Shown: positions 275 to 5,223, numbered from the stretch's first letter. The stretch: DNA of 13,432 bases from an uncultured archaeon (GCA_964388035.1 CAYLZE010000129.1:1-13432); one strand, 5' to 3'. The notes: generated by a model from the letters alone, not told the origin. A program made the numbers and translations.

Positions 275-1216
275 ATGAAAGTCGAAAAATCGAGTCAAGA
301 TCTTGAAAATGAGGTAATTTATTCAAGCCTTTGCATTCATTGTGGAAGCTGTAATGCCTTTTGTCCACACATGGATTTTAATAAGGATACAGGAGAAGCT
401 TATGTGGTAGATGAATGTGCAGAAACGGTTGGATTATGTTATAATTCATGTCCCCGCACATTTTTCCCTGTTAGTGCTATTGAACAAAAGACCTTTGGAA
501 CGACTCGCACTGATCTTGCGGTAGGTGTATATAAAGACATTGTTCAAGTCAAATCTAAGAATAAAGATGATATTTTGTATAATCTAGTGAAAACTGCATT
601 TGATGAGGGCATTGTTAAGTCCATGGTCTTACCAGAATCGCATAGCAAAAAACCTCCTGTAGCATATCCCATAATTGTGGAAGACGCCAATGAAGCAAAG
701 AAATATATTCCAACCAAGACAATGGATAATGCAGGGCCTTTAGTAACTGGAATTGGAAAAGCTTATCTTTCAAGGAAAAAGCAAGTAGGGATAGTAGCAA
801 ATCCTTGTCATATTCGAGGCATAGCAAAGATTGCAAGTTCTGATTTTAACACGGGATTAAGAGAAACTCTATCTTTGAAAATAGCATATGCTTGTTCCTC
901 TGGTGGAATGGCTGGATGCAAGTACTGCACGGATTTTTCAGGTGAGTTTTCAGATCTATCATATTCCCCTTGGGGCGCTCCAAAAGGAGAAGCATTACTT
1001 ATTATCCGAACCGATTTGGGTCAAAAAATAGTAGATGCTGCTGTAAAGAAAAAATTCATTGAAATTACTAATGATAAACCAGATCTTGCAGAAATGAAAA
1101 AATTTATCAATAAAAAGCGAAAGAAAAATTTTAGAACTCTCATTGGTAAATCTTTAGTTAAAGCCAAATACCTCGAATTAACGGGAGATGAAATTTTAGA
1201 GTTATTAAAAGAATAA
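275..1216 (+). CDS. Divergent FrhB/FdhB-family (F420 hydrogenase/dehydrogenase beta subunit-like) Fe-S protein with N-terminal ferredoxin domain
   Basis: CIHCGSCNAFCP and CAETVGLCYNSCP ferredoxin motifs. VGIVANPCHI resembles VGTPCQI, IAYAC resembles IGLFC, and GCKYCTDFSGEFSDLS...IIRTDLG resembles the FrhB C-terminal signature. Confidence 0.8.
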   Translation: MKVEKSSQDLENEVIYSSLCIHCGSCNAFCPHMDFNKDTGEAYVVDECAETVGLCYNSCPRTFFPVSAIEQKTFGTTRTDLAVGVYKDIVQVKSKNKDDILYNLVKTAFDEGIVKSMVLPESHSKKPPVAYPIIVEDANEAKKYIPTKTMDNAGPLVTGIGKAYLSRKKQVGIVANPCHIRGIAKIASSDFNTGLRETLSLKIAYACSSGGMAGCKYCTDFSGEFSDLSYSPWGAPKGEALLIIRTDLGQKIVDAAVKKKFIEITNDKPDLAEMKKFINKKRKKNFRTLIGKSLVKAKYLELTGDEILELLKE

Positions 1217-1219
1217 GCA

Positions 1220-1260
1220 TTTATTTTATTTTTCCCTCTTTTTTTCTCAAGCATTTTTTT
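1220..1260 (+). terminator. Oligo-T tracts downstream of the FrhB-like gene, likely archaeal terminator
   Basis: Several T runs directly after the stop codon in a convergent intergenic region. Confidence 0.5.
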
Positions 1261-1321
1261 AACGAAATATAAAACCAAAGGGTATTATCGTTTCTAACTT
1301 CTTTTTATTTCACTCTTAAGC

Positions 1322-1340
1322 AAAAAAGAAATTGAAAAAA
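1322..1340 (-). terminator. Oligo-T tract downstream of the longin-like gene
   Basis: aaaaaaagaaattgaaaaaa-type A runs on + give T runs on the minus strand just after the stop at 1348-1350. Confidence 0.45.
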
Positions 1341-1347
1341 TGTTTGA

Positions 1348-1779
1348 TCAGAGATTAACCAATCCGGCGCCCCATTTTTCGGATTTAGACATTTCTTTGA
1401 ATATTTCATCAAGTTCTCCTTCATACTGTTTAAATGAAGTTACATCGCCGTCAAAATTCTCCAGTTCCAATTTAAACTTTTTAATAAATTTATCTTGGAG
1501 GATTTCAATCCTTTTTTTAATTTTATTATCTGAAGTATTAATGGTTGCTTTAACCACGAAAATCAATTCATTTTCGGTAAAAAATAAAAATTTTACCCCT
1601 TTGCTTTCTATCTTCTGAAGAGTGGAAGCCATTACTTCTTTAGAAACAGTTAATATACCGGTAAGTAACCCTCCTAATAGCTGTTCAAAGGCATCCTCAT
1701 TTTTCGAAGTATCATTTCCCTTAATGCGGTGATAAAGACAAATTCCCGACTTATCAATTATCCAGAATTCTTCAATCAT
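1348..1779 (-). CDS. Longin-like domain protein (143 aa)
   Basis: MIEEFWIIDKSGICLYHR...LLGGLLTGILTVSKEV...LQKIES...FLFFTENELIFVVKA...KKRIEILQDKF fits the beta-beta-alpha-beta-beta-beta-alpha-alpha longin pattern (sybindin/AP-sigma-like). ATG at 1779 preceded by purine-rich GGAAGCAAGGAA is preferred over TTG at 1800. Confidence 0.72.
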   Translation of the reverse strand: MIEEFWIIDKSGICLYHRIKGNDTSKNEDAFEQLLGGLLTGILTVSKEVMASTLQKIESKGVKFLFFTENELIFVVKATINTSDNKIKKRIEILQDKFIKKFKLELENFDGDVTSFKQYEGELDEIFKEMSKSEKWGAGLVNL

Positions 1780-1800
1780 TTCCTTGCTTCCTACTCTCAA

Positions 1801-2103
1801 TTATACTTTTATCAGTCCTATGATAAAAAATATGAGAGCAATTAAAGCAAGTCCCTCATAAATTTCTAATATTTTATCTCCAATAATCGGGATTGCCTCG
1901 AATCCAGAATGATTTAGAATTCCTGCTAACCCCCCATATAACCCTGATATAGCCAAACATGTAAAGGCTGCAAAGAAAAATAATGCAAGTCTATTCTGAG
2001 TTGATTTATATTTTTTTATAGTGGTATACGCTAATATCATATATATTATTCCATACCCTAATTCTACCCCATATTCTAATATATCCGCCATATCTAATGC
2101 CAT
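1801..2103 (-). CDS. Small 3-TM membrane protein (paralog B)
   Basis: Three hydrophobic segments with a basic loop KKYKSTQNR after TM1. Its start overlaps the upstream stop (TAATG). Confidence 0.8.
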   Translation of the reverse strand: MALDMADILEYGVELGYGIIYMILAYTTIKKYKSTQNRLALFFFAAFTCLAISGLYGGLAGILNHSGFEAIPIIGDKILEIYEGLALIALIFFIIGLIKV

Positions 2104-2417
2104 TATTCTGTGCCCCTTGGTTTTTTAATTAGTCTCAATCCATAAAAAAAGAAAAAAGCTGCCAGAAATTGTGTAGATTCTATTATAGCTTCCAAATAAG
2201 CGGAATCAATTAAAAAACTATTCTCAAAGGGAGAAATTATAATTCTTAGCAAAATCGAAAGGCCAATAATGCCAAATGCTATTGAAATAAATAGTAAAAT
2301 CTTATTTTGCATTCTTCTATAAGATATCATGGTGTATGTTGATAGAAAAAAAAATCCAATGATACTGATGATCTGAATTGCTAGAATTACACCCGCAGTA
2401 GTTAAATACACTGACAT
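2103..2417 (-). CDS. Small 3-TM membrane protein (paralog A)
   Basis: Three hydrophobic segments with a basic loop SYRRMQNK after TM1. Aligns by eye with 1801..2103. Confidence 0.8.
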   Translation of the reverse strand: MSVYLTTAGVILAIQIISIIGFFFLSTYTMISYRRMQNKILLFISIAFGIIGLSILLRIIISPFENSFLIDSAYLEAIIESTQFLAAFFFFYGLRLIKKPRGTE

Positions 2418-2474
2418 CTGTTAAACACTCATTTTTAAACTATTCTTCTTATTATTGATTTTATTAATCTGCAA

Positions 2475-2489
2475 TATTTAAAGTTATTC
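2475..2489 (-). promoter_or_regulatory. Putative BRE/TATA promoter for the 3TM-3TM-longin unit
   Basis: Minus strand reads GAATAAC-TTTAAATA about 58 nt upstream of the ATG at 2417. The AT-rich background limits specificity. Confidence 0.35.
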
Positions 2490-2534
2490 CATTAAAACCA
2501 TAAAAAGGCGGTCCTGATAAATAAAAGAAACTTT

Positions 2535-3740
2535 CTATTTCAGTGAAGCATCCAAATGCAATAATAAATCAATTATAAATTGATTGAATTTTGCCAACAT
2601 TTTAGGTGAAAAATTTCGAACATTATCTCGATCTGAATGAATGGGAGCATTAGAAAAAAAGACTATAAATTCATATCCAAAAGACTTTAAAGGAGCATGA
2701 TCTGTTGAGTAATGGATCAATGGTGGAATCCAAAAGGGTTTAATTTCATAAAAATCACTCTCTTTATTCTTTAAAACTGATTCTATTTCCTTTTCAATAA
2801 TTGGAGAAAATTTTCTCTTTGGTAATAATCCTTGGGAATGGGCATAAAGATTTGATAGTTTATTTGCTCCTACTGTATCAAATATTAAAAAGAAAGTATT
2901 ATTCTTGTCATAATCTTTAAAATGGCTTTTAATGAAACTATCTGCCCCGAAATCACCCCATTCCTCAGCCCCCGTCAGAACAATTGTTAAATTTATTCTC
3001 TCCAAAGGATCATTTTTAAAAGAGTGCAATACATTCAAAGCGGCAGCTACTCCCGTGGCATTGTCCGCTGTTCCGAAAGATTTATTGTGGCGTTTATTAA
3101 AAAGCTGAATACAATAAAAAGTTGCAAGGAAGAATCCATAATAAAATTGATAATAGAAATTTATCGGTATTACATTTAACAATGATAAGATTATCACGAT
3201 CATGTTATGAAGTGAAAAGAAAGTGCCACCAACCAATCCAAATAAGTATATTGCCCCATCGAACAAAGGATGTAATTCATGACTCATCGAATCATAGTGG
3301 GCTAAAATTACTAAATTCCTCACTTGTTGTGGATTTCTTTCACGAGGGGGAATAGTAAGAATATAATTAAATGATGTTCTCTCTTTTCCAATTCTGGTAA
3401 AAGTAAATTGGATTTTCTCTCTTATGGTTCTGCCAAAATATGATAAAATCAAAAGAAGAACGCTAAAACAAATGCTTAAAACGCTTAATCTATAAATATC
3501 AAAAACAATTATTAAAATAATTAGGATTCCAAGAAATGGATCATAAATTCTTAACAAGATATTCATGAAAAAAGATGTATACATGAATGCTTCTTTTTTA
3601 AAATCAAGAAAACCAAGAGAAGTTAATTCTGATTCAAGTATTTCTTGAACTTTAGTTTCCCCATCTGTTCCTGCTAAGCGAGGAAATGATATTTTTTCTA
3701 CAAAATCTTTAGAAAAGTAATCTTTTGAATAATTAAACAT
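2535..3740 (-). CDS. Membrane-embedded M28-family zinc metallopeptidase
   Basis: PRLAGT, AHYDS, GTADNATG, GAEEWG, FDTVG, STDH and IHSDRDN motifs, with two hydrophobic hairpins inserted. ATG at 3740 (MFNYS; 8-nt overlap with the GTPase stop) is preferred over TTG at 3776. Confidence 0.88.
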   Translation of the reverse strand: MFNYSKDYFSKDFVEKISFPRLAGTDGETKVQEILESELTSLGFLDFKKEAFMYTSFFMNILLRIYDPFLGILIILIIVFDIYRLSVLSICFSVLLLILSYFGRTIREKIQFTFTRIGKERTSFNYILTIPPRERNPQQVRNLVILAHYDSMSHELHPLFDGAIYLFGLVGGTFFSLHNMIVIILSLLNVIPINFYYQFYYGFFLATFYCIQLFNKRHNKSFGTADNATGVAAALNVLHSFKNDPLERINLTIVLTGAEEWGDFGADSFIKSHFKDYDKNNTFFLIFDTVGANKLSNLYAHSQGLLPKRKFSPIIEKEIESVLKNKESDFYEIKPFWIPPLIHYSTDHAPLKSFGYEFIVFFSNAPIHSDRDNVRNFSPKMLAKFNQFIIDLLLHLDASLK

Positions 3741-4269
3741 TCTTTTTTTCGATGATTTCCCTTGCGAGCGTTTCAAAAATTATATGGTTATTATATCCTG
3801 ATTTGCTACTAGTTTCTATCAAATGCGTGATGCTATGTTTTGCTTGAAATTCCTTAGCTTTTTCAATGCTTACTACCCGCTTTTCATCTGCCAGATCGAG
3901 TTTTTCTCCAATTAACATGTAAACAGGCTCGGTAGAATTATCATTTACAATGTGATACCATTCCTCTAAGTGTTCATAACTAGAATATCGGGTAATATCA
4001 TAGCATATTAATGCTCCCATTGCCCCTCGGGCATAATTCGGTAAGAAAAATCTAAAACGCGCTTCACCTGCAAAATCCCATAATTGAAGGTATACCTCAT
4101 ATATACTATTTCCTTTTTCAATTTCAATGGCATAAGTGGCCAGATCCGTCCCAATTGTCATTTTCTGAGGTAGATAATTGCCCGTGATCAATCTTTGTAT
4201 CATTGTGGTCTTTCCAACGCCACCATCACCCACAACTACGATTTTGAACAAGAATTTCTTCCGAATCAT
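3733..4269 (-). CDS. Rab-like small GTPase (Ras superfamily)
   Basis: G1 GDGGVGKT, G2 MTIGTD, G3 LQLWDFAG, Rab-like RFRFFLPNYARGAMGALICYDIT, G4 GEKLD, G5 ETSSK. No C-terminal Cys motif. Confidence 0.93.
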   Translation of the reverse strand: MIRKKFLFKIVVVGDGGVGKTTMIQRLITGNYLPQKMTIGTDLATYAIEIEKGNSIYEVYLQLWDFAGEARFRFFLPNYARGAMGALICYDITRYSSYEHLEEWYHIVNDNSTEPVYMLIGEKLDLADEKRVVSIEKAKEFQAKHSITHLIETSSKSGYNNHIIFETLAREIIEKKNV

Positions 4270-4332
4270 TTGAGCTTTTAATTCCCCGAAGTAAATTTTT
4301 TTATAAATATTATATATTAATTCTAATTAAGT

Positions 4333-5223
4333 TTATTCTATTGTTAAAATTTGTTTAAATTTTTTATTTATTGAAATAATATTCTGTTTTATATGGACTT
4401 GTAGGTTTTTCGGTAAACTAGATAAAATCGAGTTAAATTTTTCCTTATCAATGTTTATTATATCTTTATAAATTAATAAAAAACTACTGCAATCAAAAAT
4501 TGGGGGCACCAAGAGGATTAGTATAATTAAATATGATAATCCTAAACCCTTAGAATTTAGCAATCCTGTACCAGGATAGTTCAATATAAAACCTACAAGA
4601 AGATTCTGGTTATTGAGATAAACTAGAATAATATTGAAGATATTAGCACTAAAAAAAATAACAAATCCCCCAATGCTGATTAATTTTAACGTTTTGAGCT
4701 TAAAATTGCCAATTATTTGTTGTAATCCCGATTGAGAGGACTTTCTATCAAAGAGGTATAAATCACTTTTCTCTTCTGGAAGGATAATTTGTATTTTACC
4801 ATACTTCCAAATATCTATAAAAATCCAAAAGAAACTGAGCGTATATATAAAGATAAAAATGATAATAAAATAATTCGAGTAATCTGCTATCAATTGCGGG
4901 TGATATAAGCTTTCTGCTCCAATCCAGAATAATAAAATTTGGTTAAATAATGACGCAAAAAAAAATCGATTCGCGTGTCTCTTTTCCACGCCCAACGGAC
5001 TATAAATTATTAAATCTTCAGAAAACTTAATTCTCCATTTAATAATACTCAATATCTTAAAAAAAAGATAATAACCGAAAGTAATGAGTGGAAAAATAAA
5101 TAGAAATATGTTATCCCAATATTGCGAGACGGTTAAAATGAACAAAAAAAAAAACAATATCAACTCTCTCATGAGGCTTTCCGATAGGAGTTTTCTCCAA
5201 CTTAATTTTTCTTGGTCATTCAT
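4333..5223 (-). CDS. Hypothetical polytopic membrane protein (about 6 TM)
   Basis: 296-aa ORF with about six hydrophobic segments in three pairs. No family motif recognised. Confidence 0.75.
   Translation of the reverse strand: MNDQEKLSWRKLLSESLMRELILFFFLFILTVSQYWDNIFLFIFPLITFGYYLFFKILSIIKWRIKFSEDLIIYSPLGVEKRHANRFFFASLFNQILLFWIGAESLYHPQLIADYSNYFIIIFIFIYTLSFFWIFIDIWKYGKIQIILPEEKSDLYLFDRKSSQSGLQQIIGNFKLKTLKLISIGGFVIFFSANIFNIILVYLNNQNLLVGFILNYPGTGLLNSKGLGLSYLIILILLVPPIFDCSSFLLIYKDIINIDKEKFNSILSSLPKNLQVHIKQNIISINKKFKQILTIE

Follow-up and report, generated by a model that had tools for sequence, protein, structure and literature searches.

A paralogous pair of three-helix membrane proteins encoded with a longin in Asgard archaea, a candidate membrane station for a small-GTPase switch

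Three consecutive minus-strand genes encode two small, predicted membrane proteins and a longin in the window, as we call the whole 13,432-nt stretch of DNA that was analyzed (GCA_964388035.1 CAYLZE010000129.1:1-13432; G+C ~30%), which comes from an uncultured Lokiarchaeia-type Asgard archaeon with a 5.47-Mb genome. TM-A (104 aa, 2103..2417; hereafter A) and TM-B (100 aa, 1801..2103; hereafter B) were delineated by translation of their open reading frames (ORFs), A together with its 12 homologues, which are found in Asgard archaea only, and B together with its family profile. The 143-aa longin-fold protein (1348..1779) was delineated from its AlphaFold2 (AF2) model, Foldseek searches, and the starts of its orthologues. 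We propose that A and B might together constitute a membrane station, heteromeric in make-up, for a switch of longin and small GTPase, a reading that we consider about evenly poised between right and wrong.

The relationship between A and B emerges most clearly when families rather than single sequences are compared. Two blocks of the translations show 10/30 and 7/20 identities when counted by hand, and BLASTP alone detects the similarity weakly (E = 0.028). With family profiles built from 10 A and 16 B sequences, hhalign returned a probability of 94.6% (E = 6.7e-8, score 46.5, 81 columns), as against scores of 17.6 for a reversed alignment and 11.9 ± 2.6 (maximum 23.1) for 60 column shuffles in which composition was kept. 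HMMER detected each family with the profile of the other, B proteins being found by the A profile at E values of 1e-5 to 1e-8 and some A proteins by the B profile at 0.002–0.008. A joint A+B alignment of 24 sequences is nearly gap-free, with invariant L25, Y33, F48, and G93 and near-invariant T29, S54, E80, A86, F90, and L94. By these comparisons, A and B are real, old, and distant paralogues. The first-pass annotation of this DNA had already described the two ~100-aa proteins as alignable and paralogous from the block identities, and had named a profile–profile comparison without A–B homology as evidence to the contrary; the comparison gave the opposite result.

The same annotation had pointed to a Glu near the start of the third transmembrane (TM) helix and to a polar Q/E in TM1, and both prove to be conserved across the families (the TM1 position being Q15 in A and E14 in B). 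In addition, each protein has a signature of its own. That of A comprises Q15 in TM1, the loop SYRRMQNK, and E76/E80/Q83, followed by QFLAAFFFFYGLR and a basic tail, with QFxAAFFFFYGLR as an A-specific invariant motif, and that of B comprises EYxVExGYG in TM1, the loop KKYKxTxN, a glycine-rich SGLYGG in TM2, and KILEIYEG opening TM3, with EYxVExGYG and SGLYGG as B-specific invariant motifs. Since each retains its own invariant motifs, A and B are likely to have distinct, non-redundant roles. In both proteins, K/R residues are concentrated in loop 1 and at the C terminus, and D/E residues at the N terminus and at the loop 2/TM3 start. Because of the positive-inside rule, this charge distribution suggests an N-out/C-in topology with three TM helices each and a cytoplasmic basic loop 1; a crude hydropathy threshold detects just two of the three helices in A and in B. 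The conserved acidic/polar residues lie in TM1 and TM3, within the half of each helix nearer the outside, and the loops measure 8–17 residues, leaving no extracellular domain.

The third protein is a longin by predicted fold, as the first-pass annotation had claimed. Its AF2 model, generated from nine orthologues, has a predicted local distance difference test (pLDDT) value of 78 and a predicted template modeling score of 0.75, and DSSP assigns to it E4-9, E14-19, H28-48, E55-59, E62-69, E72-79, H84-99, H103-107, and H113-131, which is the strand–strand–helix–three strands–helices order of longins. A Foldseek search of the Protein Data Bank (PDB) with this model returned 55 chains at E ≤ 1e-3, including AP sigma (AP2 sigma), Sec22b (template modeling score 0.62–0.68), VAMP7, the TRAPP subunits Bet5/Trs23/Tca17, Mon1-Ccz1, BLOC-3, SRX, and MglB. 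By sequence, the nearest PDB protein is Bet5/TRAPPC1 (E = 0.004), and the Pfam cut-offs are not reached (Fuz_longin_1, 24.2 vs. 26.1 bits; Sybindin, 14.6 vs. 25), with sub-threshold matches to Fuz_longin_1 in 5/5 and to Sybindin in 4/5 orthologues. Of 400 Asgard genomes, 381 contain matches to the longin profile; in the window genome, these amount to 29 ORFs, beside which there are 50 Ras-like GTPase ORFs. Paralogues fused N-terminally to Ras-like GTPase domains occur in many Asgard genomes, twice in that of the window, and such longin–GTPase fusions have been described (Tran et al. 2024, PMC10933270). These fusions, together with a GTPase that takes the operon position of the longin in Thorarchaeota, point indirectly to a possible role of the longin as a dimeric platform for binding a small GTPase.

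The three genes keep close company in other genomes. B is in every case immediately preceded by an A-like gene, which overlaps or abuts it. In the window, the overlap is a TAATG (2105-2101) in which the stop codon TAA of A and the start codon ATG of B have one base in common, and this coupling, noticed in the first-pass annotation, is kept as tight translational coupling in four lineages. In the Loki-type loci that were fetched, A and B are followed in the same order by a longin orthologue (145–154 aa), the genes overlapping or nearly touching, amid unrelated flanks (PEPCK, penicillin amidase, and POR). Two loci depart from this: in one, A is truncated, and in the other, an A/B chimera replaces the pair. 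This chimera (91 aa; L017:1498-1770, minus strand, G123:C128) has helix 1 of A in frame with helices 2–3 of B, has lost the conserved cytoplasmic loop, and is followed by the longin; it is known from one 88%-complete metagenome-assembled genome and may have arisen by deletion or represent a gene copy in decay. Where orthologous loci have both A and B at full length, 7–23 nt separate B from the longin, and in the window the distance from the B stop to the longin ATG is filled by a purine-rich spacer of 21 nt, ttgagagtaggaagcaaggaa (1780..1800, minus strand). In Thor-type loci, A and B are followed in 7/7 cases by a Ras/Arf-like GTPase of 165–183 aa, with a gene for a convergent 300-aa protein beyond (L002:9016-9918, minus strand; also L003-L005 and L014-L016).

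On one side of the trio in the window lies the gene of a membrane M28 peptidase (3776..2535), and on the other, in convergent orientation, that of an FrhB-like protein (275..1216). A relative of the same genus (G162) keeps a 296-aa TM protein, a Rab-like GTPase, and the M28 peptidase beside the FrhB-like gene, with ~360 bp between and no trace of the triad. Because both flanks are present there without it, the triad was apparently gained or lost as a unit, independently of the upstream GTPase. A larger module (1348-5223) that would include the Rab-like GTPase, the M28 peptidase, and the 296-aa TM protein as obligatory members was rejected, these genes not being neighbors of the triad elsewhere and persisting without it in G162. 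The G162 site (L085:6505-6866, G162:C22), syntenic to window positions 1217-2534, holds ~330 bp flanked by an inverted repeat that is perfect over 22 nt (ATGAGGTAGCAAATTAATCTCA with its complement); the stretch resembles a miniature inverted-repeat element, and the repeat has no copy in the window. Mobile-element signatures were looked for around the triad and none was found. That A, B, and longin genes form one autonomous operon is the best explanation of their arrangement.

A short C-terminal tail connects the partners found beside A and B in the two lineages. Every A-B-linked longin ends in K-S/T-E-K-W-G-K-G-L-x-D-L, in which K132, K135, W136, and G137 are invariant, and residues 136-143 have pLDDT <50 and are disordered in the AF2 model. 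In the window, this tail is KSEKWGAGLVNL (coding region 1351..1386, minus strand; family consensus K-S-E-K-W-G-K-G-L-I-D-L). The Thor 300-aa protein, which consists of a zinc-ribbon-like N terminus (CxxC...CxH) and a domain with weak structural leads to DENN/Avl9/folliculin (template modeling score 0.33–0.41, protein atlas model), ends in R-A-S-E-W-G-K-G-I-L-D-L, and hhalign aligns it with the longin in the tail region alone (63%, E = 7e-5). In a pattern search, all such proteins that were retrieved proved to have the tail, as does a single ORF in the entire 5.5-Mb window genome, and longin paralogues away from A-B are without it, except for one orthologue in G153. Since two different protein bodies beside A-B carry the same rare tail, tail and pair probably work together; this circumstantial argument is the strongest one for a functional tie between them.

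We envisage that A and B would form an obligate hetero-oligomer, because their own invariant motifs predate the split of the Loki-, Thor-, and Jord-type lineages; most simply, coupled translation would yield a 1:1 six-helix unit. The cytosolic longin would be held at this unit, with contact probably made by the disordered, near-invariant KWGxGLxDL tail and a conserved cytoplasmic loop of B (K-Y-x-x-T-x-N), and, once at the membrane, would act on a Ras-superfamily GTPase. The longin is nearest to the longin domains of TRAPPC1/Bet5 and Mon1, which form Rab exchange-factor platforms. In Thorarchaeota, the gene of the GTPase itself comes after A and B in the operon, and the tail is borne by a different protein, the convergent 300-aa one. 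Finally, the conserved, outward-facing acidic/polar residues of TM1 and TM3 would permit binding of a cation or ligand, and hence possibly sensing. A more specific version, which we put forward tentatively and with more doubt than belief, is that A/B might be an integral-membrane receptor dedicated to regulators of small GTPases, which it would recognize by the KWGxGLxDL peptide. This peptide would have been grafted onto the Loki longin and the Thor zinc-ribbon protein, and A/B would thereby recruit a Ras-like GTPase, possibly when a cation is bound by the acidic cluster that faces outward.

Complex prediction lends weak support to an association of the longin with A+B. With the longin as the scored chain, the A+B+longin complex reached 0.57 (best of three controls, 0.00), which lies in a band where, according to the tool, a prediction is wrong more often than it is right if the interaction was not already likely. 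Between runs, at least 84% of contacts are the same, and partner pLDDT is at least 64. The pass mark is reached by 58/80 solved complexes and 2/110 mismatched pairs, and only 7 of the 80 solved complexes reach it with a score at 0.60 or under, as do both of the mismatches that passed.

The modest band of this score is one of several points that weigh against a station for a longin/GTPase switch. The distribution of A/B is patchy: among 400 Asgard genomes, the pair occurs in about 16, B profile matches being strong in 11 and weak but paired in 5 of 6 Frey/Jordarchaeia genomes, and it was not found in any of the listed single-contig genomes. In the Frey/Jordarchaeia (5 of 6 genomes) and in family f16, the surroundings of A-B out to ~8 kb contain neither a longin nor a Ras-like GTPase nor a tail-bearing gene, and because these pairs stand alone, A-B can evidently work without a neighboring partner. 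The longin linkage is kept in Lokiarchaeia amid unrelated flanks; the Jordarchaeia and f16 pairs go part of the way toward what the first-pass annotation had named as refuting its reading, homologs without a longin neighbor. Conversely, a longin orthologue with the tail is encoded in G153 (94% complete), a genome in which A-B was not found. The upstream Rab-like GTPase persists in the triad-less relative G162, and no cognate GTPase is nameable in the window genome: the Thor GTPase is 28–37% identical, about equally, to many GTPases there, and a search by best match to it was discarded as it gave no clear orthologue. Beside the f16 pair, on the same strand and 50 nt before A, lies the gene for a protein of 366 aa that matches no family (L018:15-1115, plus strand, G071:C17), whose N terminus and central IIVMGQELLVSHVVRGLRLFTLFPP recall uDENN/DENN by eye, with no tool support; comparison revealed no homology to the Thor 300-aa protein or to the longin.

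The A-B pairs that lack such neighbors in two lineages and the longin orthologue without A-B in G153 are what would be expected if the genes were merely co-transcribed, A/B having a separate membrane role and the longin or GTPase being a lineage-specific passenger. It also fits this explanation that Asgard GTPase and regulator genes generally lie outside operons (PMC10933270). We nonetheless regard it as quite improbable, for the two partner architectures beside A-B have the same rare C-terminal tail, the partner is always of longin/GTPase type in both lineages that have one, and the three genes were gained or lost as one unit.

What A and B are by family is only partly told by their relatives. 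Word-based searches found as relatives only ~100-aa proteins of Promethearchaeota/Lokiarchaeia and Thorarchaeota, and an exhaustive HMMER search of 1.84 billion representatives with the A+B profile found 15 proteins at E ≤ 1e-3, among them no eukaryotic homologue and no fused six-TM A-B protein, so that the split six-TM idea of the first-pass annotation draws no support from this search. The lone long match is a 3360-aa protein, over 38 residues, which we took as spurious. The A/B family is very small and confined to Asgard archaea. The PDB sequence search found no relative of A/B, and NCBIfam gave no match. Against Pfam, A has sub-threshold matches only, to DUF7521 and MASE3. For DUF7521 (PF24365), A scores 17.6 bits against a cut-off of 27, and matches occur in 1/10 A and 1/16 B members; for DUF5985 (PF19447, cut-off 27.3 bits), window B scores 13 and window A 11.6 bits, with sub-threshold matches in 11/16 B members (best E = 0.0017). 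The resemblance to DUF5985/DUF7521 suggested in the first-pass annotation was thus a fair lead, in that the f16 B orthologue (G071:C17:10927-11160) exceeds the DUF5985 cut-off (28.1 vs. 27.3 bits), although window A and B fail both. These families have like size and helix count, and the protein-atlas feature neighbors of A/B partly carry them, whereas members of these families are not among the proteins that the A+B profile detects at the threshold above. The A/B family is best described as a putative divergent DUF5985-like offshoot, by which no function is indicated; the function of DUF5985 and DUF7521 is not known, so that membership would leave the module unexplained. DUF5985-like N-terminal helices also head Thor-type multi-TM proteins of ~230 aa (L076:79-1788 and L081:97-1725, both minus strand), of which forms of 545–570 aa add a C-terminal region with EExxFRG that by eye looks like an intramembrane protease of CPBP/Rce1 type.

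The joining of a membrane body to a longin is a recurrent design in the Asgard lineage. The window genome encodes a 525-aa MFS-like protein with ~12 TM helices and a C-terminal longin of the window family (longin E = 1e-9, MFS_1 E = 1e-5). Its gene (G000 contig C143, L063:545-2122, minus strand) is directly followed by a Roadblock/LC7 gene (L063:3-365, minus strand), and the two look like a transporter–longin–roadblock set. A separate family of 7TM-longin proteins of ~430 aa (e.g., P0029, L032:1501-2796 in genome G158) comprises at least 145 clusters in Loki, Thor, and Hermod lineages. It is predicted to have seven TM helices, an extracellular hairpin, and a cytoplasmic domain of longin topology, and has no Pfam match; Foldseek matches of its model are below significance (GPCR-like bundles, E = 4e-3; AP2 sigma, E = 4.6e-3, template modeling score 0.61 by target). 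Homology of these proteins to A, B, and longin was considered and is unsupported (hhalign 37%, 5.7%, and 2.3%, respectively). The fused membrane–longin proteins that the first-pass annotation suggested looking for thus exist, but homology of their membrane parts to A or B could not be demonstrated. By analogy, the A/B-longin operon would be a split form of this membrane–longin design, not by shown descent.

The abundance of the 7TM-longin family in Loki, Thor, and Hermod lineages would also suit a ligand- or ion-sensing split receptor, in which A/B would relay a conformational change to the longin, the latter serving solely as the output of the receptor, and the A-B-longin linkage applies equally to it. 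Sub-threshold matches to sensor modules, namely 7TMR-DISM and MASE3, point the same way. MASE3 matches 5/10 A members (best E = 2e-4) with no full-length match to the sensor domain, and in window A the match covers model positions 12-72 of 226 only and is under the cut-off. DUF7521 is present in a Haloferax transcriptional regulator (10.1101/2025.11.10.687552). Such a receptor would, however, have no extracellular domain, its loops being as short as given above, and no signal or ligand is indicated; profile comparison does not establish A/B as homologues of the 7TM body, and the structural matches of the 7TM-longin model fall short of significance. We find this explanation rather unlikely.

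Equally, A/B could be a small heteromeric transporter or channel of 3+3 helices, in the manner of semiSWEET/PQ-loop proteins, with the longin as a regulator or as a reporter of occupancy to a GTPase. The size of ~100 aa, the three TM helices with N-out/C-in topology in each protein, and the embedded conserved acidic/polar residues fit this, as does the same-family longin that the window genome fuses to an MFS-like transporter body. Transporter-linked longin/roadblock signaling has precedents in PQLC2 with the C9orf72 longin complex and SLC38A9 with Ragulator. On the other hand, A/B match no transporter family at E ≤ 1 save single stray members, so that the match to a known small transporter family that the first-pass annotation had named as refuting its reading did not appear, and they have no sequence relative in the PDB. 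A relation to semiSWEETs in particular was ruled out by sequence: A/B have no PF03083 (MtN3_slv) match at E ≤ 1 and no PQ motif, and hhalign of the A, B, and A+B profiles with three Loki semiSWEETs gave 0.2–0.5%, that is, below 1%. A PF03083 scan of the genome of the window itself (G000) gave zero matches. A transporter or channel therefore seems to us rather improbable.

Returning to the locus that we read as a candidate station, the sequence around the triad offers plausible signals for its expression. The gap between the M28 peptidase gene and A is 117 nt and contains a TATA-box-like TTTAAATA (2475..2482, minus strand) ~60 nt 5' of the A start, read from the sequence by consensus match only, which is the probable promoter of the cassette. 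A second box, TTTAAAAA at 2439-2432, is too near the ATG at 2417 to serve the long form of A. Public gene calls for A and two homologues give only 65–69 aa, starting from the internal Met36 and dropping the first conserved helix; because this N-terminal helix is conserved, we favor the 104-aa form. The longin lies in a 150-codon ORF (1800..1348, minus strand) that opens with TTG at 1800 and has an internal ATG at 1779. The true start is most likely the ATG at 1779, giving 143 aa, because five orthologues begin MIEEFWIID. Directly past the longin stop codon, two T-runs (1322..1340, minus strand) face the convergent FrhB-like gene and are a probable archaeal transcription stop; a scan of the locus for bacterial-type promoters and terminators was uninformative, with zero terminators detected.

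Three kinds of known system resemble the proposed station in part. In the Asgard longin/roadblock/GTPase repertoire, the third gene belongs to the same longin family, which is TRAPPC1/Bet5-like and has GTPase-fused paralogues; for that repertoire, no membrane partner was reported, no membrane targeting was seen, and GTPase genes generally lay outside operons with regulators (PMC10933270). Here, in contrast, the longin (in Thorarchaeota, the GTPase) is operon-linked to a polytopic membrane pair, and the longin has a specific tail. The Streptomyces conservon, with the membrane kinase CvnA, the roadblock protein CvnB, CvnC, and the Ras-like GTPase CvnD, and likewise MglA/MglB (PMC4316618), provide prokaryotic comparisons, the conservon being an operon that joins a membrane protein, a regulator of the roadblock/longin superfamily, and a small GTPase. 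The A-B cassette differs from it in being without a histidine kinase or enzymatic domain, in having two 100-aa three-helix paralogues and a longin instead of a roadblock protein, and in that it includes a GTPase gene in the operon of Thorarchaeota alone. Of the parts of a conservon-like set, Loki loci have the pair and the longin, and Thor loci have the pair, the GTPase, and the tail-bearing 300-aa protein; there is no locus type in which all three recognized parts occur. Eukaryotes hold longin/roadblock platforms at membranes in the SRP receptor (SRX on TM-anchored SR-beta), PQLC2/C9orf72-SMCR8-WDR41, SLC38A9/Ragulator-Rag, Mon1-Ccz1, and TRAPP. The proposed station would be analogous, an integral membrane protein positioning a longin platform for a small GTPase, and SRX, TRAPP, and Mon1 are among the fold matches of the longin; A/B, however, have no detectable sequence relation to the membrane proteins of these platforms. 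In the literature, we found no account of paired three-helix membrane proteins with linkage to a longin.

Asgard genomes encode dozens of Ras-like GTPases and longin/roadblock proteins, and how regulators are paired with GTPases and how they gain access to the membrane without lipid anchors are open questions. The cassette offers a compact and testable set, namely two 100-aa membrane proteins and a 143-aa tailed longin, to which Thorarchaeota add a GTPase and a second tail-bearing protein. If the binding proposed here is true, it would be one way in which a longin/GTPase switch was tied to the membrane before eukaryotes. If A/B are indeed a receptor for the tail, they would correspond, in prokaryotes, to the transporter-like proteins that anchor longin complexes in eukaryotes, and a membrane site, a regulator, and a GTPase that belong together would be available for these proteins for the first time.

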